A stretch of 64,000 bases of DNA, from the NCBI GenBank assembly GCA_049652745.1, contig JBASEY010000042.1:6153-70152 (forward strand), read 5' to 3'. The position numbers were made by a program, and so were the translations under genes. Positions 13,169 through 58,392 of this stretch are shown one piece after another (the first letter of the stretch is position 1; each line of letters starts with the position of its first letter). The stretch comes from a bacterium. GTDB taxonomy: Bacteria > CSSED10-310. The notes under the pieces are model-generated. The model saw only the letters and a program-made list of their open reading frames with translations. It had not been told where the DNA came from and did not search any database.

Positions 13169-14353
13169 ATGAAGACGAATAAATCGATTTATGCCGTAAT
13201 TGGTTGCGGTATGCAAGGTGTTGCAGAGGCGTATGATTTGGTTCGCTTTGGTCATGCCGAAAAAGTTGTGATGGTGGATTTGCGCCGGGAAGCCGCAGAG
13301 CAGGCGGCGGCTAGTGTCAACATGCTGACAGAGAGTGACAGGGCCGTTTCCATAGCGATCGATGCATCCCGAGGGGATGATATTGTTCGGATGCTTAGAG
13401 ATCACAATGTTACTGTTTGTTGTGGCGCTGCGCATTATGCACTCAATTATGAGCTTTCCAAAGCGGCTTTGGAAGCCGGTGCGCATTTTTGTGATATGGG
13501 AGGCAACACAGAAGTTGTCATGAAACAACACTTGCTGCATGATCCGGCGATGCAGAAAAACATTGGGATCGTTCCCGATTGCGGGATTGCGCCGGGAACT
13601 GCAAATATCCTGGCGGCACGTGCCATCAAACACATCGAATGCGATTCGATACAGATGTATTGCGGTGGTTTGCCGGTATCCAGAGATTTGCCGTTGGGGT
13701 ACAAATTGGTTTTTTCGATATCGGGTTTGACCAACGAATACACAGGTAACTGTATCGAGATACGAGATGGCCGGATTGTTTCCGTTCCAGCTTTTACTGA
13801 AAAAGAAGCTCTGGTGTTGCCGGAACCGGTGGGAGCCTGTGAAGCTTTTCTGACCAGTGGAGGTACCTCGACCGGGCCGATCAGTTTCCATGGCAAGCTG
13901 TCGTCATATGGATATAAAACCGTCCGATATCCCGGTCATTATGCAACAGTTCGCTCGATGATCGACATGGGGCTACTGGAATTGGATCCTGTTCAAGTTG
14001 CCGGTCAAGATGTTGTCCCCCGCGATCTGTTTCATGTTTTAGCGTCGGCTTATTGGGATTATCCGGATGAGCCGGATCTTCTTGTTTTGCGGGTTGTGGC
14101 TAAAGGGGCAATCGATGGTCGACCGGTCACAATGATTCAGGATCTGATGGATATACAAGATGGGAAAACCGGTTTTTCCGCTATGGCGCGAACGACGGCT
14201 TTTTCCGCTGCCATAATCGCGGAAGCTTTGGCATCGGGTGTTTTAGGTTCCGGTGTTCATTATCTTGAGCGGTCTGTCGACCCGGACTGGTTTGTCGAGG
14301 AAATGGCAAAGCGTTCGCTTCATGTTGTGACATTGATAGAATCCGCCGGATAA
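13169..14353 (+). CDS. saccharopine dehydrogenase family NAD(P)-dependent oxidoreductase
   Basis: N-terminal Rossmann motif AVIGCGMQG and Sacchrp_dh-like C-terminal region. Confidence 0.7.
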   Translation: MKTNKSIYAVIGCGMQGVAEAYDLVRFGHAEKVVMVDLRREAAEQAAASVNMLTESDRAVSIAIDASRGDDIVRMLRDHNVTVCCGAAHYALNYELSKAALEAGAHFCDMGGNTEVVMKQHLLHDPAMQKNIGIVPDCGIAPGTANILAARAIKHIECDSIQMYCGGLPVSRDLPLGYKLVFSISGLTNEYTGNCIEIRDGRIVSVPAFTEKEALVLPEPVGACEAFLTSGGTSTGPISFHGKLSSYGYKTVRYPGHYATVRSMIDMGLLELDPVQVAGQDVVPRDLFHVLASAYWDYPDEPDLLVLRVVAKGAIDGRPVTMIQDLMDIQDGKTGFSAMARTTAFSAAIIAEALASGVLGSGVHYLERSVDPDWFVEEMAKRSLHVVTLIESAG

Positions 14354-17400: not shown

Positions 17401-17720
17401 GGCTCGATCAATTGCGAGCAAAATATCCGTTTTATAAGGGTATCGATAAGCGCCTTTCCGTATTTGTTCAAAAAGCATCGCAAATTGCAATGGCTGATAA
17501 GGCCTGGGATTCGGCGGGGAAATTGGTGGATTATTTGGTTGATATGAATCCGGATAATCCTGATACCTGGGTTACTCTATCTCAATATTTGCATTGGACC
17601 AAACGAACCGAAGAAGCATTGACTGCTTTGGAAAAAGCTCTGAATAAAGAACCTGAAAATGCACTTTACGGGCGCTTGAAAGAAATCTATGAGGATACAC
17701 TTCGGCGATCCGCTAATTAA
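14409..17720 (+). CDS. large secreted repeat protein: about 12 tandem 27-aa GDDxY/QGAA beta-solenoid-like repeats, then HEAT and C-terminal TPR repeats
   Basis: Signal peptide. Repeats GNDIY.., GRDVY..SQGAA..GVGFLYDER, GDDIY..CQGAA..GISIDLE and so on, between about nt 15260 and 16330. PBS-lyase/HEAT-like repeats near aa 680-900. TPR at the C-terminus. Confidence 0.7.
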   Translation: MSDFFSLISKRNFCLMTAFLLVVVCAYSDDHAPVSILDDAFERAGALRSDLVVPEPWESGLIVAGRQPALSDAMVDPLYIVPLAHVFGARFRGLKGTISPDSLLDTAYEMLHISTTAHKSFVPEPKSLVDALEWLQASHHRGVIEAHYRSHLEKRIAQWPTELEEAVSILVQAMTTASMLHKEALAALDTEEIELLKESIVSIVSDPISTDGQIFFSDNDLEWPRNLQLMAKVNFNKLFYAADILAKAVVITRAGLQTVAAKIPANHEEVLLNFYSPIGRIVVAGTGINTHNSDAALLIDLGGNDIYLNNAGGCIESGVGISLLIDISGNDIYENLNPGSLGGAILGVGMVFDCEGRDVYRSGSLSQGAAIGGVGFLYDERGDDIYHAKSFCQGAAVFGVGISIDLEGDDTIVCKSMGQGFGSTLGLGLMLNIAGNDSYASGVDLAATESNPGFVFAQGAAAGFSPSDKSKNVGYYGGIGFLIDGKGDDQYLAGQFCQGAAKFGSMGLLLDCGGDDYYQAGDFSQGAAEDWSSAVIIDLKGSDRYLAGDTSQAAAVNHSTGICLDYEGDDEYTLIGAHGQGHARQPFSLGLFLDYKGFDRYSGGPFSRGSVVNTFQDTGYIIGVFIDHRGKDIYEGVIYENDSDKEINNTFWSRRFGEIGIDTPLAPGLYFLDQQAHSRHQHYDMSPVTDLESGVELSRLGAGDPFKCNHALSFVNDKGKDAIPIIIKAVSRGHDSFRRTIEEGLGIILLQHPVDTESIDQLIPLLGNLDPKTRQWALIQLAKYSSSDLVEVVANHLHDDDAGVREAAARIAGGIKSSKLERELAQMAVNDTKPGCRYVAMKALAVNTSPEYEVVFRKGLGDSHLAVHHAALDRVIHQNDLVAIGALQLLSLSQNPFVRVSSAIGLIQLGEKSGFPILIDSLEGVPREISPFDTAQDVSEFMAEYSGVDHGWNKGTWEQWWASNEADFSLMRCQKARQDYLEFYSLIATMPPIQVVNRLDQLRAKYPFYKGIDKRLSVFVQKASQIAMADKAWDSAGKLVDYLVDMNPDNPDTWVTLSQYLHWTKRTEEALTALEKALNKEPENALYGRLKEIYEDTLRRSAN

Positions 17721-17735
17721 AAAGGAGGAGTTATC

Positions 17736-18920
17736 ATGCTGTTTTCTCGATCTGATGTAAATACACGTTTGATGATCTGTTTTTGTTCAATTGTAATCGT
17801 ATTTTTTTCATCATCCTCTCTGGCGTTTTTGTCACCCGAGACACCATTGCCGTCGCCACCGAAAAATTGTCATGCTGCTCTGGTTATGGAGGTTTCTTCG
17901 GGGGAAATAGTGTTTGAATACAATATAAACGATCGGGTCTATCCAGCGTCCATGGCCAAAATGATGTTGGTTTTGATAGCCATGGAAAAAGTGAAATCCG
18001 GAGAAATCTCTTTGGACGACGTAATAACCGTATCTGCCGCAGCTTCAAAGATCGGGGGTTCGCAAGTATACTTGAAACAAAATGAAACATTTACCTTACA
18101 GGATCTGTTGGAATCGGTTTTGATACAATCCGCCAATGATTCCAGCCATGCGATAGCGGAATATATAGCTGGTTCTCGAGATGGTTTTGTTGAGCTGATG
18201 AATCAAAGAGCCGCGCAATTAGGGATGGAGAACACGGTATATCAATCTCCGCACGGCCTTCCGCCTGATGCACAAAGAGGACCCGATATCACAACAGCTC
18301 GTGATTTGGCTGTTTTGGCTCGTGAACTATTGATCAATCATCCTGAAATACTTCAATGGACATCATTGGATACCAAACCTTTTCGTGACGGAACATTTAT
18401 TATGACCAATACGAATCGTTTGGTACGTAAATTTGACGGATGCGATGGAATAAAAACCGGTTATTATCGGGATGCCGGGTTCAGTATAACAGCTACGGCA
18501 CAGCAAAAAGGCGTGCGGGTCATCGCGGTTGTCGCTGGTTGTGGGAAAGGGAAAGAAAGGTTTGATGAAGCTGAAAGGCTTATGAAATGGGGTCTGTCGC
18601 TTTTTATAAACACTGAATTGATTTCGGCGGGGTTTCCTGTAGAGAATCTGATTCCGGTCGTAAACGGCGCCAAACTGGAAACTCGACCTGTGACTCAAAA
18701 CAGTGTGAGCGCCGTTATACCCAAGAACAGAGTGGGCGATATCATGATGAAAACCACTCTCGAACGTGAGCTGGTTGCGCCGTTGGAACCTGGAATAAAA
18801 TGTGGAAAAATAAGCTTTTCCCTGGATGACCATGAATTGGGAACAAGTGACCTGGTAACCTCGGAATCCATTGAAGCGCTGGGGTGGTGGGGACGATTGA
18901 AACGAAAAGTCGGGTTGTGA
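17736..18920 (+). CDS. D-alanyl-D-alanine carboxypeptidase (S11 peptidase, PBP5/6-like)
   Basis: SxxK motif (SMAK), SxN motif (SAND), KTG motif (IKTGYY). Signal peptide present. Confidence 0.85.
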   Translation: MLFSRSDVNTRLMICFCSIVIVFFSSSSLAFLSPETPLPSPPKNCHAALVMEVSSGEIVFEYNINDRVYPASMAKMMLVLIAMEKVKSGEISLDDVITVSAAASKIGGSQVYLKQNETFTLQDLLESVLIQSANDSSHAIAEYIAGSRDGFVELMNQRAAQLGMENTVYQSPHGLPPDAQRGPDITTARDLAVLARELLINHPEILQWTSLDTKPFRDGTFIMTNTNRLVRKFDGCDGIKTGYYRDAGFSITATAQQKGVRVIAVVAGCGKGKERFDEAERLMKWGLSLFINTELISAGFPVENLIPVVNGAKLETRPVTQNSVSAVIPKNRVGDIMMKTTLERELVAPLEPGIKCGKISFSLDDHELGTSDLVTSESIEALGWWGRLKRKVGL

Positions 18921-19196
18921 ACACCGAGCGGTTCGTGAATCGTCCTTGGTTCGGTCACCGAAGTCCAGGGTAAAGTCCGAAGAGATTGCTTGTTTTTTCG
19001 ATTTGTCACGTCTAATTATTTACGAATACTGCTTTACATGAGAGACTTCAGTTGAAGTCTAAAGGGCAGCGGATTTCTTGAGGATCAGGTTCAAGACCTT
19101 TCCGATATCGCTGATTACCGCTTCTTCCATACTTCATTTCAATACCCGTATCATCGGAGTGATAGGGATAGACAGCATAAAAGTGTGGGAATTTAA

Positions 19197-19225
19197 TTGA
19201 CTTTTCTTATTTCTTTTGGTATAAG
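19197..19225 (+). promoter_or_regulatory. sigma-70-type promoter candidate, TTGACT-17nt-TATAAG
   Basis: Near-consensus -35 and -10 hexamers with a 17-bp spacer, about 48 nt upstream of the beta-helix gene start. Confidence 0.45.
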
Positions 19226-19272
19226 TGTTCTGGAAGAGAAATAAAACCTTTATCAGAAAGGTAGGTTACACT

Positions 19273-20454
19273 ATGAAAAGGTTTGGGCTTATTATCATAA
19301 GTGTCGCATTTCTTGCGGTTCTGCCCTTGTCGGCGGCGACGTGGAAAGTTGGCAAAAGTACGCTGGCTGATTTCGACAGTATTCAGCAGGCAATTCTGGA
19401 CAGTTCTGTCCAAAGCGGTGATACCATATTGGTTTTACCGGGTGTTTATGTCGAGAATGTGTGGTTTCCGGCTAACAAGAACCTTGTTGTCAGGGGGGTA
19501 AAAGGGTATAAGGAGACGATCATTCAACGGCCTGAAATGGATTCAAAAGGTCCTCAGATGACGGTATTGATCAGAAGCCGGAGTGTTTTCGAAGGTTTCA
19601 CGGTAGAAGACCCAAAAGGAGTCATTTGGCCTTTAACAACACTGGAATCTCTGCCGCAACCGGGGGGACAAATCCTTGAAAACACCGCAGGCATCACCGT
19701 AACCGGTCCCGCAACAGTTAAGAACAATTACGTTTCTGGACACCGGTTTGGCATATTGCAAGAGTGTCCTTCGGGAGCAATGGGAATACCGCCTGTTATT
19801 CGGTTCAACATTGTAGAGCATAACGATATCGGGATCGGATGTTGTGAAACGTTTTCGATTTTTCGTGACAACATTGTCACCAACAACTTTTGGTTGGGAA
19901 TTTTCGTTGGGCATTCATCTTGTGATGAAATCGTCAATAATCTGGTAATTGGAAACGGCACTTTGGGCAGGGAGACCAGTTGTGGTGTATTTTGCTGGCA
20001 ATCATATACGTGGCGTCCGTATGAATTGAACCCGAAAATTTCCGCCAATACGATTGCAGCGAACAATGGTGACGGGATTATCTGTGTTTATGTTGAAGGC
20101 GCTCCCAATGTGCCTGTGATAGAACACTCGATCATTGCGCAAAATAGCGGTATTGGCATACACGTTGTTCCGGCGGACAATGAAAACGATACTCCGCGTC
20201 CCAGAGTTTACAACTGCAATATCTGGGGTAATGCTGTCGCCGATGTCAAAAACGTCAGTCGCACAATTAACTGCATCTCGGAAGACCCGTTGTTCGTTCA
20301 TGGATACCGACTGGATTATCTGTCCCCGTGCATTGACCGAGGCGCTCTGCCGGAAAACATCGGCAGTACGACCATCGACAATAAACCTGACAAGGGCAAA
20401 CAAGACCTTGGATTTCATTATCCGATACCGTTGATGCCGGGATTGTTGCAGTAA
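19273..20454 (+). CDS. secreted right-handed parallel beta-helix repeat protein
   Basis: Signal peptide. Repeated short beta-helix turns with N/G-rich caps (NosD/pectate-lyase-like). Preceded by a near-consensus sigma-70 promoter. Confidence 0.6.
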   Translation: MKRFGLIIISVAFLAVLPLSAATWKVGKSTLADFDSIQQAILDSSVQSGDTILVLPGVYVENVWFPANKNLVVRGVKGYKETIIQRPEMDSKGPQMTVLIRSRSVFEGFTVEDPKGVIWPLTTLESLPQPGGQILENTAGITVTGPATVKNNYVSGHRFGILQECPSGAMGIPPVIRFNIVEHNDIGIGCCETFSIFRDNIVTNNFWLGIFVGHSSCDEIVNNLVIGNGTLGRETSCGVFCWQSYTWRPYELNPKISANTIAANNGDGIICVYVEGAPNVPVIEHSIIAQNSGIGIHVVPADNENDTPRPRVYNCNIWGNAVADVKNVSRTINCISEDPLFVHGYRLDYLSPCIDRGALPENIGSTTIDNKPDKGKQDLGFHYPIPLMPGLLQ

Positions 20455-20599
20455 ATTTCGATACGGAAGCTGTTTCGAGCTGTTCGTGTGGGCTTGAATT
20501 GTTACGCTGAGAATTCTTGAAAAATATCGAATAAAGTTGATCTTTTACAAAAGGATGTTCTATCATGACCACGCTGGATTTTGTACGCAGAGGTTTGCC

Positions 20600-21187
20600 A
20601 TGATTAGATTTACAATGACTGTTTTCTTATGCTCCATAGTGGTTTTAACCGGTTGCCAGACGGCGCCGCGTGTTCACAGAATCGAAACCGATGAACCGAT
20701 TGATCTGAGTGGTCGTTGGAATGATACCGATTCACGTCTTGTTGCTGAAGAAATGATTTCCGACGCGCTGAACCGTCCATGGCTTATGGCGTTTGTGGAA
20801 AAGAACGGCAAAAAACCTGCCATTATCGTCGGCACCGTTCTCAATCGATCCCATGAATTGATCAGCACGGACACCTTTATCAAAGATATGGAGCGTGCAT
20901 TCATCAATGCTGGAAGCGTTCGCATCGTTCAGTCCGCTGAAGCGCGTGAACAGCTCCGTGATGAACGAGCTGACCAGCAACAGTTTGCCGATCCGGATAC
21001 GGCGAAGCGGTGGCGGCGGGAATTAGGAGCGGATTTTATGCTCCAGGGTGTTATCAATTCAATTGTCGATACACAGGACCGGCAGCAGCTTGTCTATTAT
21101 CAAGTTGACCTGGAACTCACCGATATCGAAACAAACGAAAAGGTTTGGCTCGGCGCCAAAAAAATCAGAAAGTTTGTAAACCGTTAA
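20600..21187 (+). CDS. LpoB-like lipoprotein (COG3417-like)
   Basis: Lipobox LTGC. The C-terminal domain pattern matches that of E. coli LpoB (VG.V.N.S..., GADFML.G.I...). Confidence 0.5.
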   Translation: MIRFTMTVFLCSIVVLTGCQTAPRVHRIETDEPIDLSGRWNDTDSRLVAEEMISDALNRPWLMAFVEKNGKKPAIIVGTVLNRSHELISTDTFIKDMERAFINAGSVRIVQSAEAREQLRDERADQQQFADPDTAKRWRRELGADFMLQGVINSIVDTQDRQQLVYYQVDLELTDIETNEKVWLGAKKIRKFVNR

Positions 21188-21226
21188 TAATCTGTCGGAT
21201 CAAACACTAAAAAAAGGTTTCTCTAT

Positions 21227-22624
21227 ATGAATTCCTTCACGCGGATTTCAGTTATCTTGGTTTTCCTTATAAATACACTGACAGGATGCGCAACGTATTA
21301 TCAACAAAATATTGCATTTCAACAGGCTATAGCGGCTGGTCAATATCATCAAGCTGTCGACTATCTGGAAAACAATAGTGCGCTCAGAAAAAAACCAAAC
21401 AAGCTATTGTATTATCTGGAAAAAGGAACAGCCCTTCATATGGCCGGCGAATATGGGGCCAGCAATGAAATGTTCGAAAAAGCGTATGCTTTTATAGATG
21501 ATTTTATCAAAAATCACGGTCTTGAGGCATTGTCTTTTATAACCAATCCAACTGTTGTTCCTTATCCCGGGGAAGATTTTGAGCGTGTTCAAATCCATTA
21601 TTTCAAGGCTTTGAATCATGCGATGACCGGGAATTTATCCGATGCGCTGGTCGAATGCAGGCGAATCAATATCAAACTCAACGAAATCAATGACAGATAT
21701 GAATCAAACAAACGAAACCACTATTCCGGGGATGCATTTGCTTGGAATTTAATGGGTATTTTTTATGACGCTTTAAAAGAGTACAACAATGCCTTTATTT
21801 GTTACAGAAATGCCTTGGCATTATATGAAACAGATTATTTAACGTATTATAACGTGCCGGTTCCACAACAATTGATACATGATCTGCTGAAGGCGGCGCA
21901 GGATGCCGGAATGTACCAGGAGTATGATTTTTACCATGAAAAATATGCGTTGTCGGATATATTGCCTGAAAAAAACGGTGAGGCCGGCGACGTCGTTGTT
22001 TTTTGGAACGATGGGTTGGCGCCGATCAAAACAGAAGACAGTCTGAATTTTTTTATTGAGCGGGGAGCTGGTGGAGTCATGATGTTTGTCAACCAGGAAC
22101 AGGATATTTGGTTGCCGATGCCGCCAACCGGTACAGGAAGTGGAAATGTGACGGATATGAGTTTTATCCGAATGGCTCTACCCCGCTACCTTGAAAGATC
22201 TCCTTTTTTTATCGAATGCAGAGTGTCAATCGGCTCTAAAGAAATTGTGCTGGAAAAAGCTCAGGATATCAATGCGATAGCATTTTTAAATCTTCAGGAT
22301 CGAATGGGTCGGGAATTGGGAAAGGCACTGCTTCGCATGGTGTTAAAACAGGGAATTGAAAAAGCGGCGCGTGACCAAGATGAAGGCCTTGGTTTGATCG
22401 TTTCGGTTATCAATGCGGTCACAGAAAAAGCCGATACCCGAAGCTGGCAGACGTTGCCTCACCATATCGACTATGCTCGAATTTCCGTAGAAGAAGGACA
22501 GTATCAGCTTGTTTTCAAACGATCCAGTTATACTGGCGCACAATACGAAACCATACAGGATGTCGTCGTGAAGAAGGGTAAAACCACGTTCGTCACTCTG
22601 TTCGATCCACAATCGATCCCGTGA
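21227..22624 (+). CDS. TPR-like lipoprotein partnered with the LpoB-like gene
   Basis: Lipobox LTGC. N-terminal helical-repeat/TPR-like region. Confidence 0.5.
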   Translation: MNSFTRISVILVFLINTLTGCATYYQQNIAFQQAIAAGQYHQAVDYLENNSALRKKPNKLLYYLEKGTALHMAGEYGASNEMFEKAYAFIDDFIKNHGLEALSFITNPTVVPYPGEDFERVQIHYFKALNHAMTGNLSDALVECRRINIKLNEINDRYESNKRNHYSGDAFAWNLMGIFYDALKEYNNAFICYRNALALYETDYLTYYNVPVPQQLIHDLLKAAQDAGMYQEYDFYHEKYALSDILPEKNGEAGDVVVFWNDGLAPIKTEDSLNFFIERGAGGVMMFVNQEQDIWLPMPPTGTGSGNVTDMSFIRMALPRYLERSPFFIECRVSIGSKEIVLEKAQDINAIAFLNLQDRMGRELGKALLRMVLKQGIEKAARDQDEGLGLIVSVINAVTEKADTRSWQTLPHHIDYARISVEEGQYQLVFKRSSYTGAQYETIQDVVVKKGKTTFVTLFDPQSIP

Positions 22625-22694: not shown

Positions 22695-24065
22695 TCACAC
22701 CGCATGTGACACGCTGGACAGGTGAAACCCATCTATTCGGACCCAGGGAAACAGTCCCGGCCAATATTCGCCGTAAGTCTTTATCGCCGGCGTCATCCCG
22801 GTGATCCTATTCAGGCTGTTTATCGGTGAATCGTTAAACCGAAAATTGTTGACAGGGTAACGAATTTCTCCATTTTCAATCCAGAAAACACCGTCTCGGG
22901 TGAGTCCGGTGAGTTCAAGGCGGTTCCAATCGATGGGGTTGACATACCAGAAGGATTCAATCAAAAGCCCTTTATTCACACCTGTGACAAGGTCTTCTAC
23001 AGAAAATGTTCCTCCAGGCATAAACAAATTTTTTGGATATGCGATCGGATCGATATTTTTTATACGAGCATAATAAGGCGAATGCTGGAAATTTTGAATG
23101 GCGCCTTCCTTGATCCATTCTATTGTTTTCATCGGCAGTCCCATACTGAAAAAATTTCCGGCATAAGAACCTCCGGAACCTCCGGCGTTGCCGAATTTCA
23201 ACGTCGGGAGCTCGGGATGATTGACGACGCTTTTTATCGAGATGGAATCTTTGAAACACTTATCGCCTAACCTGCTGTTGTTTGATGATTTTCCAAAAAA
23301 AGAATGACCCTTATCAGCTTCTCTGGCGTCCATGGCAAATAGAAGAAACATCAGGTATTCAGAAAGAGCTTTAGGTGACAGGATGACGGTGTAAGTACCA
23401 GGTTCTTGATAACGGGGCTCCGCTGATTGCTTGGCTATTCGAATAGATCGTTCCACAGTGTCCAGGTAGTGGAATCTGTTCCAGTCTCCTTCCCACAAGT
23501 GTGCTTGGCTGCTGCCGTCATGTCGCCGGGTTCGTGTGGACAGAGAGATGGAAATTTCTGTTGACGGCTGCTCTGCGAACAAACCTTTTGTATTTGCAAC
23601 GGCTTTGCTCTTCTCGGTTACATACAGGTTGCCATATATGTTGACATCTCCAGCTTCACCCAGATCACATATTGTTTTGACGATATCGGCTCGAGAATCG
23701 ATGTCGAGCTGTGCCGTACTTTCAAACCAAGCGTTAGTATTTTCATATTTCTGCGGGCTGACAGGTTCGAAAAACTCCGGGTTTATCGGGGCATTTTGGG
23801 CGAATAGAATCGCTTTATTGACCAGTTCATCCAAGTTGTCGTTTTGAAGCAAGTTGGTTTGGATGACGGATTCTTTCCCTTCAACTGCTACAGCCAGGGT
23901 TAGCGAGGTGTTTTGATGGGTTTTATGCTGAGTGATTCGGTTGGCGGCAAATCGAATAGCGCCTACGTTGTCTTCCATTAGAACGGCGGCGGCATGATCG
24001 GCGCCTTTTTTCCGAGCTTTTTCCAGGATAGATTCCAATAGAGCCGTGGTATTCAATATAGTCAT
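22695..24065 (-). CDS. PmbA/TldE-family metalloprotease subunit (second pair)
   Basis: TldD/PmbA-family architecture without HExxxH. Its start overlaps the upstream TldD stop (ATGA). I trimmed the start to the Met at 24065. Confidence 0.7.
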   Translation of the reverse strand: MTILNTTALLESILEKARKKGADHAAAVLMEDNVGAIRFAANRITQHKTHQNTSLTLAVAVEGKESVIQTNLLQNDNLDELVNKAILFAQNAPINPEFFEPVSPQKYENTNAWFESTAQLDIDSRADIVKTICDLGEAGDVNIYGNLYVTEKSKAVANTKGLFAEQPSTEISISLSTRTRRHDGSSQAHLWEGDWNRFHYLDTVERSIRIAKQSAEPRYQEPGTYTVILSPKALSEYLMFLLFAMDAREADKGHSFFGKSSNNSRLGDKCFKDSISIKSVVNHPELPTLKFGNAGGSGGSYAGNFFSMGLPMKTIEWIKEGAIQNFQHSPYYARIKNIDPIAYPKNLFMPGGTFSVEDLVTGVNKGLLIESFWYVNPIDWNRLELTGLTRDGVFWIENGEIRYPVNNFRFNDSPINSLNRITGMTPAIKTYGEYWPGLFPWVRIDGFHLSSVSHAV

Positions 24066-25516
24066 TTTGTTTTCCTCCGTATCGAGATGTTTTTCAGGCG
24101 TAATGGTGCGCTTCCATGAGTCAGAGTGGCGTTTTGTACGGGTTGACCTTTTGCACAGCCCAAGAGGCCATAAGGCCGCCATTCTTCAGCACGGCAGACG
24201 CTGTCGAGAGAGCCCCAGAATGTTGGGTTGGCGCCATCGTATACGACGTTCCATAACGGCTCTTTAACTTTACCGTTTTGAATGCGCCTGCAATATTCGC
24301 CGCCGAACTGAAAATTCAGTCGCTGGTGATCAATACTGAAGGCGGCCATTCCATCGACAAGAATTCCGTTTTCAGTGTCTTCTATCAATTGAGCCAGCGT
24401 GGGTGAACCAGCCGGTCCAGGATCGATACCGATATTTGCCATTCTAAGTAAAGGGAAAGAGCTCCAATGATCTGCTCTGGCGCAGCCATGACTTTTTTTC
24501 TGTCCGATCAACGGTGCGGTGTCACGGGTAGTTGAATAATCCTTCAAAACACCATTTTCGACAAGCTTCCATTTATCAGCCGGTACACCTTCATCGTCAA
24601 AAGCACAGGTAGCCAGGCCGTTGGGAAGTGTTCTGTCTGCGGTGACATTGAACAGTTCCGAGCCGTAACGGTAGTGGTTCAGTTTGTCGGGGGTGGCAAA
24701 GGATGTGCCGGCATAATCCGCTTCCCATCCCAGCACTCTATCGAGCTCGGTAGCGTGTCCGATGGATTCATGAATGACAAGGCGGGTGTGATTGGGCATT
24801 AAAATCAAATCTGCTTTGTCTCTGTTCCAGGGTTTAGCATCCAGCAGTTCGACGGCTTCCCGGGCAACACGTGGTGCTGCAGCCAACAGCTCTTCAGACC
24901 GAATGCCCTCATATCCGACGCCTTGCTGCAGACTTTGATAACTTCTTGTTTCAGATCGATCGTGACTCACTGCTGTAGCTCTGTAATCAGCATCACTAGT
25001 TACCATTACTTGGTCGATACGGCTGCCTAAAGTGTTGACATACTTTTTATCGGTTCGCTGAAAAAGCATGAGCGAACTTGTTTCACTGACACGGTTTACG
25101 GCAGCCATAGATGCATTTATGGCAAGTAAAAGGTCAAATTTTTCTTGTAAGGGTATGGTGAAAGGATCGATTTGAAAGGCTGATTGCCATTGTGATTCAT
25201 AGGCTTTTAACGGTGTCGGTACAATGGAAACACGGGAAATTCGTGCGCCGGCTTCGGCTACCTGAACAGCTTTTTGTACCAGTTTAGCCATGTCTTTTTC
25301 TGTCGTCACTATGCCGGCGGCAAATCCCCAGGCGCCTTTGTGAAACACCCTGACATTCATGCCTTCACTGGCCTCATCAACCATAACATCGATCACTTGG
25401 TCACGGGCACGAAGAATTTGTTCTCGATAACTCCCCCATTGACTCTCCAAAAAAACAAGCTTTTTATCCATTGCCTCGTTTAAGGCGGCACAGAGTAATT
25501 TATCCACATCGATCAT
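24062..25516 (-). CDS. TldD-family zinc metalloprotease (second pair)
   Basis: HESIGHATELD HExxxH motif. TldD-like length and C-terminal Gly-rich region. Confidence 0.8.
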   Translation of the reverse strand: MIDVDKLLCAALNEAMDKKLVFLESQWGSYREQILRARDQVIDVMVDEASEGMNVRVFHKGAWGFAAGIVTTEKDMAKLVQKAVQVAEAGARISRVSIVPTPLKAYESQWQSAFQIDPFTIPLQEKFDLLLAINASMAAVNRVSETSSLMLFQRTDKKYVNTLGSRIDQVMVTSDADYRATAVSHDRSETRSYQSLQQGVGYEGIRSEELLAAAPRVAREAVELLDAKPWNRDKADLILMPNHTRLVIHESIGHATELDRVLGWEADYAGTSFATPDKLNHYRYGSELFNVTADRTLPNGLATCAFDDEGVPADKWKLVENGVLKDYSTTRDTAPLIGQKKSHGCARADHWSSFPLLRMANIGIDPGPAGSPTLAQLIEDTENGILVDGMAAFSIDHQRLNFQFGGEYCRRIQNGKVKEPLWNVVYDGANPTFWGSLDSVCRAEEWRPYGLLGCAKGQPVQNATLTHGSAPLRLKNISIRRKTK

Positions 25517-25739
25517 TGTCTTCTCCTTAATTTGATCTTCAATATTTCCAGGATTGCAGTTATGATATTATCCTGATATTCAACCTATCAAGGCTGGGAT
25601 GGCAGTGTGCGCCGGGAGTGATATTAAAATTTTGTCGATTTAAGGTCAACCAATAGTTACAATAGATCTGGAAAAGGATTTTTCAAGAATTGTCAGTCCT
25701 GCCGGAAAAACGAAACTTTCCGCTTAACAGGAGGAACTC

Positions 25740-27581
25740 ATGAAGGCATCAATCAACCTGCGTATCAAAGCTCCCAACAGTAAAATGCGTAATGTTCTTC
25801 TGGAAAAGAACGAAGTCATTATTGGCAGGGACGCTTCTTGTGATGTAAGAATTGTTGACCCGGAGGTTTCGCGTCGACATGCCGCCTTGCGAATAGAGTC
25901 TCCAGATAAGATAATCATCAAAGACCTGGGAAGCTCGAACGGCACCTATATTAAAAACTCGCCGATCACAGGAGAAAAACGAATTTCTCCCGAAACCACT
26001 ATTCGTATGGGGAATAGCTATATTACGATTGAAATCAAAGGGGAAATAAAAAGCCAGGGTTTTGATATGGTCGTTACTCCCTCAGCTTATCTGCCGATGT
26101 CGGAAATTCTTGAAAAAGACCTGGATTTTTTCAGTTCCAAGACAAAAGATTTGTTAAGTTTATTCGATGATCTTCTCAGTTTCAGTTTTAGCAAGATACG
26201 ATCAAGTCTGATACTGAGCAAGATAATGGGTATTCTTGAGGCAGACAATGGAATAGTCGTTCTAAAACGTTCCGAGAGTGATACCGAGAAAGCGATTCTT
26301 GCCCAAAAAGGCGAAATCGTTCATTATCCATCGAGTATATTTGAAGCGGTTGGGGAACGGGCGGATTGTATTGTTTTACCCGAAGTCGATTCAAAAGAAT
26401 ACGTAACCGATTTAGGGAAGAAAGGAATTGGATCGCTCATATGTGCGGCAGGAGTCAATTCCGGTTTAATTCGGGTTGTTATCTATCTTGATAGGTCTGT
26501 CGGCAAAAAGATATTCAACAAAAATGATTTAGGTATTCTATGTCACCTGGCTCAAATATACGCAGCAACGGTGACCTATAACGTCGATCAGAAGATACAG
26601 GAACGAAAACTGAGCGGATATGAAGCCGAGCGATTACATTTTTTCGGTGAACTTGCCACTGAAACCGATATTTCGACGTCCAGCTCAAATAAAAAAGTCC
26701 AGCAACTGATGTTCATTGCAATGCGTGTAGGCCAATCGGATCGCCATGTTTTTATACATGGTGAGCATGGCAGCGGGCGTTTGACTTTGGCAAAGCGAAT
26801 ACATGTTTTCAGTAACAGAAAAGAGGGTCCTTTTATTTTTATGGATGCTTTGTCGACACCTCGAGATCGGATAAGAGAGGTGTTGTTTGGGGGCGAAGAA
26901 AAGGACACAAGTCCAGGACTGCTCGAGAGATCGCAGGAAGGAACACTTTACATACAGGAGATTACGGCTGTTCCTCTGGATATTCAAAAGGAATTGGCTG
27001 GCGTGCTGAGCAACGAATATACGTCTGAAAGCGATAATCAGCGGCGCCTATATACCTCGGTTCGTTTAATTGTATCATCTTCGGTTCACCCGGATAAAAC
27101 TGTCGCTGACAGCACGTTTAATTCCAATTTGCTTGATTTGACCTATCCAACGGTGTTGTTTGTGCCGTCGTTGAAAGAACGGAATGAAGATATTCTGTCG
27201 TTGGCGAAACATTTTCTGCGTGAATATTTGCCGTCAAACTGCGCCATGCCCGATTTCAATCCTCAGGCGGTTGAGCTGCTGGTTCGGTATCCATGGCCGG
27301 GCAATATAACTGAACTTCGGGACACGATGAGCTATACGGCGGCGGTGTGCCGTGAAAGGGAATTACAGATAGGGGATTTACCATATAAGTTACGAGAACA
27401 TCCGTCGGTAACTGCATCTAAAAACTTGGGTTTACGTCAACAATTGGATACGTTGGAAACCAATTTGATACTTGGGGCTCTGGAGCGAAATCGTAAAATT
27501 GTGACAAAAGCGGCGAAATCGCTGGGATTGTCGGAATCGACACTTCGATATCGTATGCAGCGATTGAAAATCGAGGTTTGA
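25740..27581 (+). CDS. FHA / GAF-like / degenerate sigma-54-EBP AAA+ / Fis-HTH transcriptional regulator
   Basis: FHA motif (IGRD...RRHA...DLGSSNGT). Central GAF-like region. The AAA+ region is clearly EBP-like, but Walker A is GEHGSGR (Lys to Arg), GAFTGA is replaced by GGEEKDTSPG, and Walker B is YIQEI (Asp to Gln). C-terminal HTH present. Confidence 0.7.
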   Translation: MKASINLRIKAPNSKMRNVLLEKNEVIIGRDASCDVRIVDPEVSRRHAALRIESPDKIIIKDLGSSNGTYIKNSPITGEKRISPETTIRMGNSYITIEIKGEIKSQGFDMVVTPSAYLPMSEILEKDLDFFSSKTKDLLSLFDDLLSFSFSKIRSSLILSKIMGILEADNGIVVLKRSESDTEKAILAQKGEIVHYPSSIFEAVGERADCIVLPEVDSKEYVTDLGKKGIGSLICAAGVNSGLIRVVIYLDRSVGKKIFNKNDLGILCHLAQIYAATVTYNVDQKIQERKLSGYEAERLHFFGELATETDISTSSSNKKVQQLMFIAMRVGQSDRHVFIHGEHGSGRLTLAKRIHVFSNRKEGPFIFMDALSTPRDRIREVLFGGEEKDTSPGLLERSQEGTLYIQEITAVPLDIQKELAGVLSNEYTSESDNQRRLYTSVRLIVSSSVHPDKTVADSTFNSNLLDLTYPTVLFVPSLKERNEDILSLAKHFLREYLPSNCAMPDFNPQAVELLVRYPWPGNITELRDTMSYTAAVCRERELQIGDLPYKLREHPSVTASKNLGLRQQLDTLETNLILGALERNRKIVTKAAKSLGLSESTLRYRMQRLKIEV

Positions 27582-27630: not shown

Positions 27631-28692
27631 TTAAGGTTCAGATAAAAATCGCAGGTTTGCCGGCGGTTTTTCGCTGCTGCCGGGACCCAGGACATATTTT
27701 GTGATAGCGGGGTAGACCTCGGCAAGCACATCTTGTCGAAGCCTTTCCCGTGTCACCTCGGGGTATTTTCGGTATTCGGCGGCAAGCAATTCAAAGCGGC
27801 CGGCTTCCCCACGGGCAGTTTCCAGTACCCTGTTTTTGTATGCTTCGGCATCTGTGGTCATTTTCAATGCTTCTGCCTGGGCTTCGGGCATGACACTCAT
27901 CGCATAGGCTTCCGCCTGATGGACAAATTCCCGGCTTTCTTCTTGAGCGTTGATAACATCGTTGAAAGCTTGAATAGTCGAACGCGGAGGTCTTACGTTA
28001 CGGATTTCCACGGACAGTATATCCAGGCCGAGGTGATGTTGTTTCATAAGATCCGCCAAGCGGTCGGCAACAAGGTCTCGCAGTTCGATTCGCCCGGACA
28101 CTAGAAGTTGGTCGACTTCCATACCGGATACGCTGTCAAGAATGACGTTCTGCACGAGCAGTTCTAAAACTTTTGAAGGTTGTCCCACATCGAACACGTA
28201 GGTGACAGGGTCTTTGATCTGGAAATTGACCAGAACAAGCAAGTGCAGGATATTTTTATCGCCGGTGACAATGTAGGGTATGGACAGGGTTCCTTGAGCC
28301 AATTGGTCAATTGGACCATACATCCGCTCAAACTCATCCACTTTTTGCGGGTCGGCGCCGAATCCGGCCTGGATAGTTTCGACCGATCGGGTTCTAACTT
28401 TTATCAGTTTGTCGATCGGCCAGGGCATTTTGATGCAGATACCCGGCTCGACACGGTTTCGAACGATTTTCCCAAACCTCATCACGATACCGGTTTCCTG
28501 AACACTGACTTGACGGACACAGGTCGAAGCATACAGCAACCCAAACAAAATCAGAGCGACTATGTAGGATCGGGACAAGATTTTTTTCATCATAGACAAC
28601 TGGTGGTTAAAATTGCCGTTTGCTGGCGCTGGTTGTGAAGAATTGCCGGTATTCATTTTTTTATCGAGTTTGTTTCTGATGAAGGGGTTCAA
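27631..28692 (-). CDS. SPFH/band-7 protein, HflK-like
   Basis: N-terminal TM helix, SPFH domain, C-terminal coiled coil. Start uncertain; it may be the internal MMKKIL. Confidence 0.7.
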   Translation of the reverse strand: MNPFIRNKLDKKMNTGNSSQPAPANGNFNHQLSMMKKILSRSYIVALILFGLLYASTCVRQVSVQETGIVMRFGKIVRNRVEPGICIKMPWPIDKLIKVRTRSVETIQAGFGADPQKVDEFERMYGPIDQLAQGTLSIPYIVTGDKNILHLLVLVNFQIKDPVTYVFDVGQPSKVLELLVQNVILDSVSGMEVDQLLVSGRIELRDLVADRLADLMKQHHLGLDILSVEIRNVRPPRSTIQAFNDVINAQEESREFVHQAEAYAMSVMPEAQAEALKMTTDAEAYKNRVLETARGEAGRFELLAAEYRKYPEVTRERLRQDVLAEVYPAITKYVLGPGSSEKPPANLRFLSEP

Positions 28693-29557
28693 ATAATTCC
28701 GAGTCCATCGATAGGATCACTGTGGTCTTTTCCCCCATTATCTTTTTTTCGGTTTCCAACGTTCTGATAAAAGCAAAAAATTCAGGGTTCTGCGAATAGG
28801 CTTTGCCATATATTTCAGCAGCTTCGGCATCTGCTTGGCCGCGTATAATTTCTGCATCGCGATAAGCGACAGCTAAAATATCGCTGCGTGCTCTGTCGGC
28901 TTCCGCTCGTATTTCGGAGGCTCGCTGTCTGCCTTGAGCGCGATACTCATTTGCAATAGCCGACCGTTCGGCAATCATTCTCCTATAAACGCTTCTTGCA
29001 TTGTCATCAGGAAGAGCGATTCTGGAAAAACCGACTTTTTCGATGACGATACCGTAGGAATTGATTCTTTTTTGAGAGTCTACACTAATTTTGTCGACGA
29101 TTTCGTTTGTTTGAATATTTTCGATTTCCGTCGAGATGATCTGATCCATGCGGTATTCACCGAAAGTCGATGCGACCAATGAGCAAACGACATCGTCCAG
29201 TTTTTGTCGAGCGGATTCCGTATTATGAATTGCTTGAAAGAAAACCAACGGATCGTTTACTCTCCAAAGAACATATGCTTGGATCAGCAGATTTTTCTTG
29301 TCGCCTGTAAGATATTCGATCAAGGGCGTTTCATAAGCCTGGAGTTTTTTATCTATCCGGTTTGTCACGGATATCGGCGCCGGCCACTTGATATAGAGTC
29401 CAGGCTGCTCATGGATCTTTCCGGGTTTTCCGAAATTTGTGATGACAGCGTATTCGTCCACGGAAACCGTGTAGAGACTTAGCACTAAAAGGACAATCAC
29501 AAGCCCGATTATCAATACGGGAACGATAATATTTTTGGTGTTCATCATCTTATTCAT
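28661..29557 (-). CDS. SPFH/band-7 protein, HflC-like
   Basis: Single N-terminal TM, SPFH domain, Ala/Arg-rich coiled-coil tail. Confidence 0.7.
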   Translation of the reverse strand: MNKMMNTKNIIVPVLIIGLVIVLLVLSLYTVSVDEYAVITNFGKPGKIHEQPGLYIKWPAPISVTNRIDKKLQAYETPLIEYLTGDKKNLLIQAYVLWRVNDPLVFFQAIHNTESARQKLDDVVCSLVASTFGEYRMDQIISTEIENIQTNEIVDKISVDSQKRINSYGIVIEKVGFSRIALPDDNARSVYRRMIAERSAIANEYRAQGRQRASEIRAEADRARSDILAVAYRDAEIIRGQADAEAAEIYGKAYSQNPEFFAFIRTLETEKKIMGEKTTVILSMDSELFEPLHQKQTR

Positions 29558-31304
29558 CGTTGATCATTACCCCTGAAACCTTGTTTGGGTTTGATTGGGA
29601 GATAAACAGATCCACCGGTCGCTTTGAAACACGGCTGTCAATCAGCCATAAAGGTTTTCCTGGCAGCCAGTAACCGAGAGCATCATGTCGTATTCGGAGT
29701 TTGTTTATCGATTTGTACTCTTTGAATGCGGCGGTGACGGACAGGAAGGCATTTGCTTGTCCGGCAGCCTTTTCAACGGTTTCTTTCTGATAGCTTTCCG
29801 CCTGGATAATCATGGATGCCGCTTCACCGGTCGTCAAAGGAAGAGTTTCCTTATAATAACCTCTAGCCTGCTCGATAGATGTTTCCAGATCCTCCTGGGC
29901 GCTTATGACATCTTCGAATGCGGGAGCCACTTCCATTGGCGGATGTACATCCAGAAAACAGATTTGCACAATTTCAATACCCAGATTGGCGGCATCCGCC
30001 GAGGATTGAATTGACTCGGTCACCGTCTGTTCAAATTTTTTACGACCATAAGCCAAAATATCGAAGAGCGAATGTTGAGCGGCCAGCCGGCACAGGATCT
30101 CGTACGACATCAACTCTAGCTGACTTTCCGGTTCGACGGCCGAATACAGATATGCGCCGACATCGACAACCCGGTAGTGCAGATTGGCTGCCAGCTCAAC
30201 AATAGCGCCGTCACCTGTTAAAACAGAGTATTCTTTTAGATAATGCGCTTTAGTCCATAAGATAATATCCGTTCTTTCTTTCGTCACATATCCCAGGCGC
30301 ATCCAGCGAACGGAATCCGTATCGATACGCTTGATACGGCTGATGGGTCTTGGCCAATCATAGTGTAATCCGGGGCCGACCGGGTTTTTGATATCGATAG
30401 GTTTTCCCAACCGTTCAACAATTGCTTGTTCACTGTAAGAAACGATATAAAAACCGGATATTATCCAGATGAACACGGCCAGAATCAGTGCTGATCGGAT
30501 GAAATTTCGGCGGAGTTTTTTTGTTTTTTCATGATTTTTCAGATCGAAATGATCGATCAGACGTGATATCAGGTGGTCTTTTTTTGTGTGTATATAACCC
30601 ATAGTGAACATGATAGCCCTGTCTTCCACCGTTCGCTCTTCCGGCATGACCTGATTACTTCGCGTCAGCATGATGGAAAAGGCGTTATAAAGAGTTTTCA
30701 AGGCAATTGCCAGAATCATCAGGGCAATAACACCGGCCATCCAGCGATCGATTCGAAATTCCATTTGTTCGCTCAACAGAGAAACAAGAACCAATATCAA
30801 AGAATAGATATCGACTTTTGAATGATAGGCATCGGCGACCAGAGCTGGTGAACCGGTTTCTTTGCCGACGCTTTCTTCAAAACGGAACCGAATATAACTG
30901 AATAGCATCAAGATCAGGACAATAGCTGCCGCGATAAGCGGATATCGAATAGTTTCCGGAGGGCCACCGAGAAAAACTTCCTTAAATACTCTTGCAGCCA
31001 CGGCTGCCAAAGCGATTCCTATAATCACGCAGGCTCGAGGTTCCCATGAAGAGCGTCTGATGAAACGAGCCTGTTTGTCGGCGGCATCAGCATCTTTTAT
31101 TTTTTCTTTTCGATCCAGAATCAGGGCGATAAACACCATGATAGTCGTGATCAAATCACCGAATGAGTGCCAGGCATCGGCCATAATGGATAGACTGCCG
31201 GTTATCGCCGCCAGGAAAAACTTGACGACAATGGATAACAAATCGACGAAAGCGACGATTATTGCGGTTTTTTCTTGTTTCCTCATGCCATGTGTCATCT
31301 CCAC
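29550..31304 (-). CDS. fusion of a cation-diffusion-facilitator (CDF) transmembrane domain to an SPFH (HflK-like) domain
   Basis: CDF TM2-like SIMADAWHSFGDL and TM5-like LVADAYHSKVD (HxxxD pairs), then an extra TM helix and a full SPFH domain with coiled-coil tail. Confidence 0.65.
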   Translation of the reverse strand: MEMTHGMRKQEKTAIIVAFVDLLSIVVKFFLAAITGSLSIMADAWHSFGDLITTIMVFIALILDRKEKIKDADAADKQARFIRRSSWEPRACVIIGIALAAVAARVFKEVFLGGPPETIRYPLIAAAIVLILMLFSYIRFRFEESVGKETGSPALVADAYHSKVDIYSLILVLVSLLSEQMEFRIDRWMAGVIALMILAIALKTLYNAFSIMLTRSNQVMPEERTVEDRAIMFTMGYIHTKKDHLISRLIDHFDLKNHEKTKKLRRNFIRSALILAVFIWIISGFYIVSYSEQAIVERLGKPIDIKNPVGPGLHYDWPRPISRIKRIDTDSVRWMRLGYVTKERTDIILWTKAHYLKEYSVLTGDGAIVELAANLHYRVVDVGAYLYSAVEPESQLELMSYEILCRLAAQHSLFDILAYGRKKFEQTVTESIQSSADAANLGIEIVQICFLDVHPPMEVAPAFEDVISAQEDLETSIEQARGYYKETLPLTTGEAASMIIQAESYQKETVEKAAGQANAFLSVTAAFKEYKSINKLRIRHDALGYWLPGKPLWLIDSRVSKRPVDLFISQSNPNKVSGVMINDE

Positions 31305-39394: not shown

Positions 39395-39598
39395 CTTCCC
39401 CCTCGCGAATGAATTCTTGGGTTTTGGAGAACATGTTTCAACTCGTTGGGCACATGTTAAAACACGGGGTCTTATAAATAATTGAAACAAGGCAAGAATT
39501 CAAACGTGTGTTTGGAGTCGGCAATCTGGACATTTACATTGCTTTCACGTTACACTCACTATTCCGGTTGGATCGTTAAACGTAAAGGAGATAAATCT

Positions 39599-51304: not shown

Positions 51305-51618
51305 ATTGCCTAATGACTATTTTTGGCAATAGTATTGGGGCCACATCTGTCTATCATGAGATGCTGTTAGACAAGCTGGAGATGTGGCTGAAAATATTTT
51401 GAACACGATTCCAAAGATTACAAAGATGGGCAGGATTAGATTCTGATCTCTTTTCAATTTGACGCAATGTTATAGGTGATTACAAATCCAAATCAAATAT
51501 AATCATTGTCGTTTTATTCAGATTGACCAATCGCCCGAAATCCTCCATAATACAAGCATTGCTGCCTTTACAAAGGCTTATGTTTGTTAGGTTTCTCACA
51601 TTAACGCAGGCAAGGACT

Positions 51619-55386: not shown

Positions 55387-55453
55387 TCAAAGCAATAAAT
55401 CTATTAGGCGGTCAGCATTGAGCGATTTAGCCTGCTGTGCTATAAAACGCGGC

Positions 55454-58336: not shown

Positions 58337-58392
58337 CAAATCGAATCGTGAAGCAACCTAAACCAAACTCGTTATTTCAAAAGAGTCGTCTG

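Follow-up and report, generated by a model that had tools for sequence, protein, structure and literature searches.

A GAFTGA-less FHA-GAF relative of sigma-54 activators and its conserved association with TldD/PmbA genes in the candidate phylum CSSED10-310

What does a transcriptional regulator do when it has kept the architecture of a sigma-54 activator but lost the residues by which such activators work? The question is raised by a gene at 25740-27581 (plus strand) of a 64,000-nt stretch of contig JBASEY010000042.1 (assembly GCA_049652745.1), referred to here as the window. Its product combines a forkhead-associated (FHA) domain, a GAF domain, an AAA+ domain of the enhancer-binding-protein (EBP) type and a Fis-type helix-turn-helix (HTH). 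The initial annotation of this DNA saw that the AAA+ domain is degenerate and proposed that the protein might compete at sigma-54 enhancers; it did not recognise that EBP homologues of this kind already form a described class, the atypical EBPs. On the analysis reported here we lean towards a different role, in which the regulator would be an atypical, sigma-54-independent EBP relative that acts as a signal-relieved repressor of the divergent tldD2-pmbA2 operon and as an autoregulator. The regulator, its domains and motifs, and the second EBP of the window lie as follows.

25740-27581, plus strand: regulator gene, FHA-GAF-AAA+(degenerate)-HTH; open reading frame (ORF) of 613 aa with an ATG start
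25740-26039, plus strand: FHA domain (residues 1-100); Pfam PF00498 at residues 26-91, 62 bits; G29-R30, S44-x-x-H47 and S65/N67-G68-T69 present
26187-26639, plus strand: GAF domain (residues ~150-300, with a long signalling helix, 261-302, at its end), from family Pfam matches, the structural model and fold matches
26640-26684, plus strand: linker between the GAF helix and the AAA+ domain (residues ~301-315), containing TETD; predicted local distance difference test (pLDDT) below 50 at residues 297-314
26685-27149, plus strand: EBP-type AAA+ alpha/beta subdomain, degenerate (residues 316-470), from PF00158, a Foldseek match to PspF and a ratio of nonsynonymous to synonymous substitution rates (dN/dS) of 0.14
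26760-26783, plus strand: Walker A remnant GEHGSGRL (residues 341-348; Lys to Arg at 347), from the alignments
26889-26918, plus strand: shortened L1 loop GGEEKDTSPG (residues 384-393) in place of the GAFTGA loop, from alignment to PspF and the window EBP
26946-26963, plus strand: Walker B remnant LYIQEI (residues 403-408; Asp to Gln at 406, Glu 407 kept), from the alignments
27114-27143, plus strand: arginine-finger region TFNSNLLDLT (residues 459-468), from the alignments; R162 corresponds to N461 and R168 to L467
27174-27413, plus strand: AAA+ lid subdomain (residues 479-558; WPGNITEL), PF25601; sensor-II R227 corresponds to T524
27444-27563, plus strand: Fis-type HTH (residues 569-608), PF02954, 32.9 bits; recognition helix SESTLRYRMQRL
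11798-12988, minus strand: second, sensor-less EBP with canonical motifs, from the ORF, Pfam and motif scoring

The AAA+ domain and its family

The regulator gene has an AGGAGG ribosome-binding site 5 nt 5' of its start, and its product is readily placed among EBP-type proteins. In Pfam, residues 316-465 matched Sigma54_activat (PF00158) with 77.7 bits against a cut-off of 20.2 bits, which is one third of the 235 bits obtained for the canonical EBP of the window; residues 479-558 matched AAA_lid_14 (PF25601, 66 bits) and residues 569-608 matched HTH_8 (PF02954). The full-length AlphaFold2 model has a mean pLDDT of 74. Foldseek aligned this model to PspF with template modelling (TM) scores of 0.79-0.82 and a root-mean-square deviation of 2.7-3.2 Å, and to PspF, NtrC1 and ZraR taken together with TM scores of 0.74-0.82. 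The best structural match of the full-length model was Brucella NtrX (5m7p, E = 1e-21), which is itself an atypical EBP, and in a sequence search of the PDB VpsR ranked second (E = 3e-30, ~30% identity across the AAA+ domain).

The functional positions were read from phmmer alignments to ZraR, VpsR and FleQ, a MAFFT alignment with PspF, the window EBP and relatives, and a pairwise alignment to PspF. The PspF reference sequence yields the canonical K42, N64, F85/T86, D107/E108, T148, R162, R168 and R227. Because the flanking anchors GxxGxG, GTLY/F, VRLI and WPGN are conserved, the register of the alignment is fixed. In PspF numbering, GEHGSGRL aligned to GERGTGKE with K42 replaced by Arg, and GTLYIQEI aligned to GTLFLDEL with D107 replaced by Gln and E108 kept. 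The L1 loop carries a 6-residue deletion in which GAFTGA is gone (LFGGEEKDTS------PG against LFGHEAGAFTGAQKRHPG in the alignment with PspF and the window EBP). Under the same scoring, the canonical EBP of the window gave K, GAFTGA, DE, R, R and R at the positions of Walker A, L1, Walker B, the two arginine fingers and sensor II. A shifted motif register was considered as an explanation and rejected, since four independent alignments put R, Q, N, L and T at the catalytic positions.

The AAA+ domain of the regulator keeps the EBP fold and has lost all catalytic and sigma-54-contact residues except the Walker B Glu. The changes at Walker A, Walker B and the GAFTGA loop that the initial annotation had read in an EBP-type central domain are true substitutions relative to PspF, ZraR, VpsR and the window EBP, and its description of a pseudo-ATPase that retains DNA binding holds but understated the case, as the arginine fingers and sensor II are lost too and the losses extend to the whole family. 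ATPase activity is predicted to be absent. The pocket, with invariant P-loop glycines, an Arg and the kept Walker B Glu, may still bind a nucleotide or a related ligand without turning it over.

This family comprises 18 sequences beyond the window protein, 33-98% identical to it. A word-indexed search returned nine full-length relatives (36-98% identity), and an exhaustive profile search of 1.84 billion representatives returned about eight family representatives, followed by generic EBPs. In a species-level genome collection the full-length relatives all came from metagenome-assembled genomes labelled "candidate division CSSED10-310", with the exception of one "uncultured bacterium". The family is restricted to the candidate phylum CSSED10-310, which is a sister phylum of Acidobacteriota whose members are uncultured, anaerobic and Gram-negative (PMC8248873).

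The degeneracy is uniform across the 19 family sequences. At the Walker A Lys position 17 have Arg and one has Cys (L010), and Lys occurs only in a fragment (P0066). The Walker B Asp is absent from all 19, its position being taken by Q, E, R or H; neither arginine finger is found in any sequence, and GAFTGA is absent throughout. By comparison, among the nearest non-family representatives (n = 138) the Lys and DE are kept in every complete sequence, and 112 are canonical at all positions checked. A degeneracy shared by all 19 family members but by no complete sequence of these 138 is beyond chance. Many of the non-family relatives match the profile in one stretch, residues ~15-611, and so share the FHA-GAF-AAA+-HTH layout. 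Such canonical FHA-GAF activators, represented by the uncharacterised metagenomic proteins P0075, P0079 and P0083 and by the myxobacterial FHA-EBPs, have the same four domains, a similar length, scores of 240-280 bits and the GAF motifs S-x-x-C-x-P and Y-L-D in common with the family. They differ in having GxxGxGKE, GAFTGA, DE, both arginine fingers and GNVRE, and by sequence they are true sigma-54 activators. Since the FHA-GAF relatives outside the family are canonical or nearly so, the family is best described as a degenerate offshoot of a common canonical architecture. Steps of that process can be seen within it: basal members have a full-length L1 loop with vestiges of the motif (SGFTGY in L011), whereas in the crown clade, which includes the window protein, 5-6 residues of the loop are deleted.

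Could a protein of this descent still activate sigma-54 promoters, by contacting sigma-54 in a non-canonical way, or as one regulatory half of a mixed hexamer in which the partner provides the GAFTGA loops and ATPase sites? The score above the Sigma54_activat threshold, the kept Walker B Glu and P-loop glycines, and the full-length basal L1 loops with SGFTGY-type vestiges would fit such a role. However, six independent functional elements are lost, among them the trans-acting arginine fingers that a mixed ring needs, and even single GAFTGA substitutions are reported to weaken activation considerably and in most cases to abolish it (PMC3162934). With no sigma-54 promoter found nearby either, continued sigma-54 activation is very improbable. 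Five defining sequence features were tested and are absent, and the regulator should therefore not be filed as a functional sigma-54 activator.

The loss of catalysis has not been followed by decay of the gene. Intact full-length regulator ORFs occur in at least 15 lineages. Against L009 (dS 1.2), dN/dS was 0.14 for the whole gene and likewise for the AAA+ domain; in comparison with an orthologue of 98% identity it was 0.19. Whole-gene values ranged from 0.09 to 0.19, and that of the HTH was 0.05. The dead AAA+ domain is under purifying selection. These values, together with the full-length ORFs and an invariant recognition helix, make it barely credible that the protein is a decaying or non-transcriptional relic, for instance a scaffold of Ser/Thr-kinase signalling with a vestigial HTH, even if the regulator does evolve faster than its neighbours (65% identity between the window and L001, compared to 75% for TldD2) and one lineage, that of P0063, has also lost the phosphothreonine-binding residues of its FHA domain.

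The input and DNA-binding domains

The FHA domain retains a predicted intact phosphothreonine pocket. Residues G29, R30, S44, H47, N67, G68 and T69 were invariant in the first family alignment (A1), the set is present in 14 of 15 family sequences, and the PDB matches of this part of the protein included the FHA domains of GarA, OdhI and Rv1747. In P0063, encoded at locus L091 (6001-7857), the FHA domain has decayed, with GQ in place of GR and SNDTEV in place of SSNGT, and the divergent tldD2 operon is missing; this suggests a further step of input loss in that lineage.

The middle domain gave no Pfam match from the window protein's own sequence. However, nine of 11 family members matched the GAF family PF01590 (best E = 8.5e-10), and a model of the domain alone (pLDDT 84, predicted TM score 0.84) had GAF structures almost exclusively as its PDB fold matches, including Nlh1 (4g3k, TM 0.69-0.74), NifA (8jrc) and a Chlorobium sigma-54 regulator. 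The modelling confirms the assignment of this domain as GAF, in agreement with the initial annotation, whose reading of intact FHA and Fis-type HTH domains was likewise borne out by the Pfam matches, the invariant phosphothreonine-binding residues and the recognition helix.

Between the GAF signalling helix and the AAA+ domain lies the short linker with TETD. A T-x-x-[DE] sequence, which resembles FHA ligand motifs, recurs at this place in ~10 of 16 family sequences (counted by eye). It is tempting to speculate that TETD is a ligand of the FHA domain, in cis or in trans, in the manner of the GarA/OdhI switch. By eye, the linker has no obvious counterpart of the N-terminal LFRS-type motif of the FleQ-type cyclic di-GMP (c-di-GMP) site.

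The HTH is the most conserved domain of the family (77% mean pairwise identity), and the recognition helix SESTLRYRM is identical in all 15 family sequences compared. This helix is unlike that of the canonical EBP of the window (ESTLRYRMQRL in the regulator, KATFYRYMKKF in the EBP). This difference bears on the suggestion that the regulator antagonises sigma-54 transcription as a pseudo-ATPase, by occupying enhancers or by forming dominant-negative mixed rings with canonical EBPs. The organism does encode at least one EBP of canonical type, the ancestors of the family were canonical FHA-GAF EBPs, and the oligomerisation surfaces of the AAA+ domain may persist, given the purifying selection on it. 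The sensor-less EBP that the initial annotation had pointed out is indeed present at 11798-12988, on the minus strand and not on the plus strand as had been implied. However, apart from the different recognition helix, no canonical EBP gene is consistently linked to the regulator across 15 lineages, the adjacent conserved intergenic region contains no sigma-54-type promoter, and the proposed mode is unlike that of any characterised atypical EBP (PMC6158489). We consider sigma-54 antagonism decidedly unlikely.

The intergenic region and its neighbours

If sigma-54 is not involved, which promoters could the regulator act on? The regulator gene is divergent from the second of two TldD/PmbA gene pairs, as first noted in the initial annotation and as found in the ORF map and Pfam matches, and the two transcription units share an intergenic region. 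The relevant features are:

25620-25665, no strand assigned: conserved ~45-bp block, candidate operator over the core promoters, from an 8-locus intergenic alignment
25621-25649, minus strand: sigma-70-type promoter TTGACC-N17-TAATAT aimed at tldD2-pmbA2, from a promoter scan and the sequence
25658-25663, plus strand: TACAAT, probable -10 of the regulator's own promoter (-35 weak or unclear), conserved in 5 of 7 crown-clade loci
24062-25516, minus strand: tldD2 (484 aa, HExxxH present), first gene of the divergent operon, Pfam PmbA_TldD; probable regulatory target
22695-24065, minus strand: pmbA2 (456 aa from an internal ATG; 4-bp overlap with tldD2), from Pfam and orthologues of 456-460 aa

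In the 8-locus alignment, 13 of the 16 invariant columns outside the ATG codons fall within 25620-25665. The majority-base fraction was 0.95 for the -35 element, 0.86 for the -10 element and 0.81 for the 17-bp spacer between them, compared to 0.47 upstream and 0.63 downstream of the block. Conservation of the spacer is unusual for a plain promoter, so an overlapping operator is likely. A 17-mer of the block, TGTCGATTTAAGGTCAA, is unique within the window. At L093 the promoter aimed at tldD2 reads TTGACG-17-TAATAT (by eye), the -10 element of the regulator has the variant TATAAT in L004, and the regulator promoters of the basal clade show a clear TTGnnn-16-TAGAAT (by eye). Putative promoters of the sigma-70 type are the rule at the regulator loci.

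A search for sigma-54 -24/-12 elements (TGGCAC-N5-TTGCW, up to 2 mismatches) found none in 25517-25739, a result that bears on the adjacent genes only; across the window the pattern occurred at chance level (33 matches, 30 expected). The proposal of a competitor at sigma-54 enhancers therefore finds no sigma-54 element near the regulator, in a region where a -35/-10 pair of the sigma-70 type is conserved, and the gene beside it encodes a recognition helix unlike the one in the canonical EBP. Rfam detected no structured RNA anywhere in the window, the conserved block included. One sigma-54-like element elsewhere may be mentioned, TGGCAAAGCGTTCGCT at 14304-14319 (plus strand), which has 2 mismatches and is not significant alone. 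It lies ~90 nt 5' of a string of genes for HEAT (1103 aa), PBP5, beta-helix, LpoB and TPR proteins (14409-22624), not far from the EBP at 11798-12988.

The link between the regulator and TldD/PmbA genes extends well beyond the window. The divergent pairing with tldD2 was found in 11 lineages, and a TldD/PmbA pair adjoins the regulator, in one of two arrangements, in 12 of 13 informative lineages; the contigs of L008 and L092 are too short to judge. The divergent tldD2-pmbA2 pair occurs in addition at four of the six basal loci. At L090 and L091 a second TldD/PmbA pair follows a gene downstream of the regulator, and then comes a D-Ala-D-Ala ligase gene. In the crown clade, genes for PBP5 (S11), LpoB and a TPR protein lie 5' of the protease genes. 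The association of the regulator with TldD/PmbA and peptidoglycan genes has been kept through rearrangements, which suggests a functional connection.

The pmbA2 gene probably begins at the ATG at 24065, with translational coupling to tldD2, because the orthologues have 456-460 aa and this internal ATG gives a 4-bp ATGA overlap. The mechanical ORF is longer (22695-24182, minus strand, 495 aa) and overlaps tldD2 by 121 nt.

The two TldD/PmbA pairs of the window, at 1602-4303 and 22695-25516 (both minus strand), differ in how well they match Pfam, with 181-203 bits for the first pair and 93-112 bits for the pair beside the regulator. TldD2 is ~22% identical to TldD1, and the two are old paralogues of which only one is tied to the regulator in the crown clade.

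On its other side, in the window and throughout the crown clade, the regulator is convergent with two SPFH/Band-7 (HflK/C-like) genes and a gene for a cation-efflux (CDF)-SPFH fusion (27631-31304, minus strand in the window). The arrangement is kept also in L008, where TldD was not seen.

In the basal loci a gene on the same strand lies directly 3' of the regulator. It encodes 418-465 aa and may be a co-transcribed partner or a target. Pfam recognised no family for this gene, nor for a 228-aa gene and a 720-aa gene. The positions of the downstream gene, which a D-Ala-D-Ala ligase gene follows, are:

L006, 9860-11155, same strand as the regulator: basal downstream gene
L011, 9935-11146, same strand as the regulator: basal downstream gene
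L093, 7845-9143, same strand as the regulator: basal downstream gene
L090, 7869-9266, same strand as the regulator: basal downstream gene
L091, 7945-9201, same strand as the regulator: basal downstream gene

Several other features of the window are recorded here for completeness. Near its end are genes for a TPR-repeat SLT lytic transglycosylase (58333-60537) and for a protein of the Mur ligase family (62844-63980), and an ATP-grasp protein and a pyridoxal-phosphate-dependent enzyme adjoin in the same region (58333-63980), which adds to the envelope theme of the window. Two paralogous genes encode class II aminoacyl-tRNA synthetases of the Asp/Lys/Asn type (39482-41005 and 56834-58336, both plus strand). 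A protein of 1001 aa with three FGE-sulfatase (formylglycine-generating enzyme-like) domains is encoded at 46067-49072 (plus strand), and a sulfatase gene lies ~6 kb downstream of it (55418-56824, plus strand). A BRO-N domain protein, of a family typical of phages and mobile elements, is encoded at 51523-52443 (plus strand), and the lowest GC content of the window (0.42) is found at 52-54 kb, where a small mobile insertion is possible.

Comparison with atypical EBPs and a proposed mode of action

EBP homologues that lack GAFTGA and work with sigma-70 are recognised as atypical EBPs, among them TyrR, PhhR, HupR, HsfA, NtrX and VpsR (PMC6158489). DhaR and YplP are further homologues with a defective GAFTGA motif, and a census in 2011 counted ~110 defective homologues beside ~4,970 EBPs with an intact motif (PMC3162934). 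The NtrC proteins of Rhodobacter and Caulobacter also belong to the class (bioRxiv 10.1101/2023.06.06.543975). By its GAFTGA-less AAA+ domain and kept C-terminal HTH, the regulator fits this class, and its FHA-GAF input and deeper degeneration appear to be new to it. Orthology to a named regulator was considered and rejected, as every NCBIfam equivalog scored far under its threshold and the inputs are FHA and GAF, not REC or ACT-PAS. None of the equivalogs reached its cut-off for the regulator; the best was DhaR with 153 bits against 551, and TyrR scored 78 against 576. As judged from these profiles, the regulator is a separate lineage that would work like the atypical EBPs and is orthologous to no named member.

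The closest parallels are VpsR and NtrX. VpsR of Vibrio cholerae has an EBP-type AAA+ domain and a Fis-type HTH, has no GAFTGA, has ND in place of the Walker B DE, and in our alignment has residues other than Arg at both arginine-finger positions. It differs from the regulator in its N-terminal REC domain, its gating by c-di-GMP, its kept Walker A Lys and sensor-II Arg, its role as an activator and its phylum. VpsR lacks ATPase activity and switches on a sigma-70 promoter, while NtrX represses a promoter that is not of the sigma-54 type (PMC6158489). NtrX of Brucella abortus and Caulobacter resembles the regulator in having lost GAFTGA through a shortened L1 loop, but it is a REC response regulator that has been crystallised with ATP or ADP, and the nucleotide site of the regulator is more eroded.

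TyrR, PhhR, DhaR, HupR and the NtrC proteins of Rhodobacter and Caulobacter are likewise EBP homologues with a defective or deleted GAFTGA motif that act at sigma-70 promoters, but their inputs are ACT-PAS, GAF-PAS or REC domains. None of them is reported to lack, all at once, the Lys of Walker A, the Asp of Walker B, both arginine fingers and sensor II, as the regulator does. TyrR is ATP-dependent. The NtrC protein of Rhodobacter still depends on ATP binding, and that of Caulobacter on both Walker motifs (bioRxiv 10.1101/2023.06.06.543975). The fact that VpsR, NtrX, TyrR, HupR and DhaR all act at sigma-70 promoters (PMC6158489, PMC3162934) further argues against the sigma-54-enhancer role given to the regulator in the initial annotation.

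PexR of Myxococcus xanthus has a GAF-AAA+-HTH layout with GAF gating through a signalling helix. It represses a sigma-A-type promoter through repeats that overlap the promoter, which provides a precedent for occlusion (PMC12754779). It is unlike the regulator in that it also works as a sigma-54 activator of the fully canonical, ATP-binding type, lacks an FHA domain, and has a GAF domain that binds Zn/Fe.

These comparisons are consistent with the following mode of action. The AAA+ domain would have been retained as an oligomerisation and allosteric scaffold between two sensors and the Fis-type HTH. The FHA domain would read a phosphothreonine mark placed by a Ser/Thr kinase encoded elsewhere, and the GAF domain would read a small ligand or a redox or metal signal. 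Through the GAF signalling helix the sensors would act on the conformation or oligomeric state of the scaffold, and hence on binding by the HTH. The regulator would bind the block at 25620-25665 as a dimer or higher oligomer and occlude RNA polymerase at the tldD2 promoter and at its own -10 element. Occlusion is proposed because the block spans the -35, spacer and -10 of the tldD2 promoter and abuts the -10 of the regulator, and repression with autoregulation is favoured because of this geometry and the near-consensus promoter. That transcription depends on sigma-70, that the block is the operator, that regulation is negative and that the FHA and GAF domains read the signals named above are all predictions of this model.

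Several observations weigh against signal-relieved repression of tldD2-pmbA2. VpsR, which is similarly degenerate, activates transcription, and this makes the sign of regulation by the present protein uncertain. The conserved block contains no clear dyad, a repeat search of the intergenic region gave only weak short repeats, and the block may be conserved merely as an overlapping promoter pair without an operator. A k-mer census found the heptamer TGTCGAT in 5 groups among 11 independent upstream regions, but it is not significant after multiple testing and its positions are inconsistent between lineages. The L011 locus has no TldD/PmbA genes, which leaves room for a broader or altogether different regulon. 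The ORFs scanned in the 64-kb window contain neither a Pkinase nor a PP2C domain that could point to a partner of the FHA domain. Nucleotide binding and, conceivably, very slow turnover are still compatible with a P-loop that has Arg and invariant glycines and with a Walker B motif that keeps its Glu. One further caveat is the fact that the organism is uncultured.

The first of these points leads to the possibility that the regulator is a VpsR-like (Class II type) activator, whose oligomer, once bound to its signal, would bring RNA polymerase to the sigma-70 promoter of tldD2, its own, or both, or stabilise it there. VpsR is the second-best PDB sequence match, has comparable degeneracy and activates its sigma-70 promoter without ATP (PMC6158489); TyrR, PhhR, HupR and DhaR also activate at sigma-70 promoters (PMC3162934); and at L093 TGTCGAT sits upstream of the -35 element and not inside the promoter. 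However, the block covers a near-consensus TTGACC-17-TAATAT, and a promoter that strong should need no activator. The geometry of the block favours occlusion, and the best structural match, NtrX, is a repressor. Activation is thus possible but, in our judgement, rather unlikely.

A bolder reading would give the dead AAA+ ring a more active part. The ring would be a switch gated by ligand or phosphorylation without ATP turnover: its P-loop, invariant and with Arg, would bind a nucleotide or second messenger allosterically, its FHA domain would bind phosphothreonine in its own linker (T-x-x-D/E, GarA/OdhI-like) or in a partner, and Ser/Thr-kinase signalling would in this way be wired to the transcription of TldD/PmbA and of nearby peptidoglycan genes (Ddl, PBP5, LpoB) in CSSED10-310. 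This we regard as doubtful on present evidence. If true, it would be an undescribed regulatory logic for the EBP scaffold and the first physiological context for the regulation of TldD/PmbA.

The principle of repurposing an EBP is known; what stands out in this case is how far the protein has degenerated, its FHA input and its link to TldD/PmbA. As far as we have found, the regulator is the first atypical EBP with a phosphothreonine-reading input. There is a practical consequence for annotation, as the Joint Genome Institute describes members of the family as "DNA-binding NtrC family response regulator", and annotation by Pfam only mislabels the family as sigma-54 activators, which inflates the sigma-54 regulons inferred for a poorly known phylum. 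The family also represents a natural experiment in which catalysis has been lost while the AAA+ domain is still selected, and it isolates a non-catalytic role of that domain in oligomerisation or allostery. Finally, the conserved association with TldD/PmbA and cell-wall genes offers a lead on the regulation of a widespread and poorly understood group of proteases.

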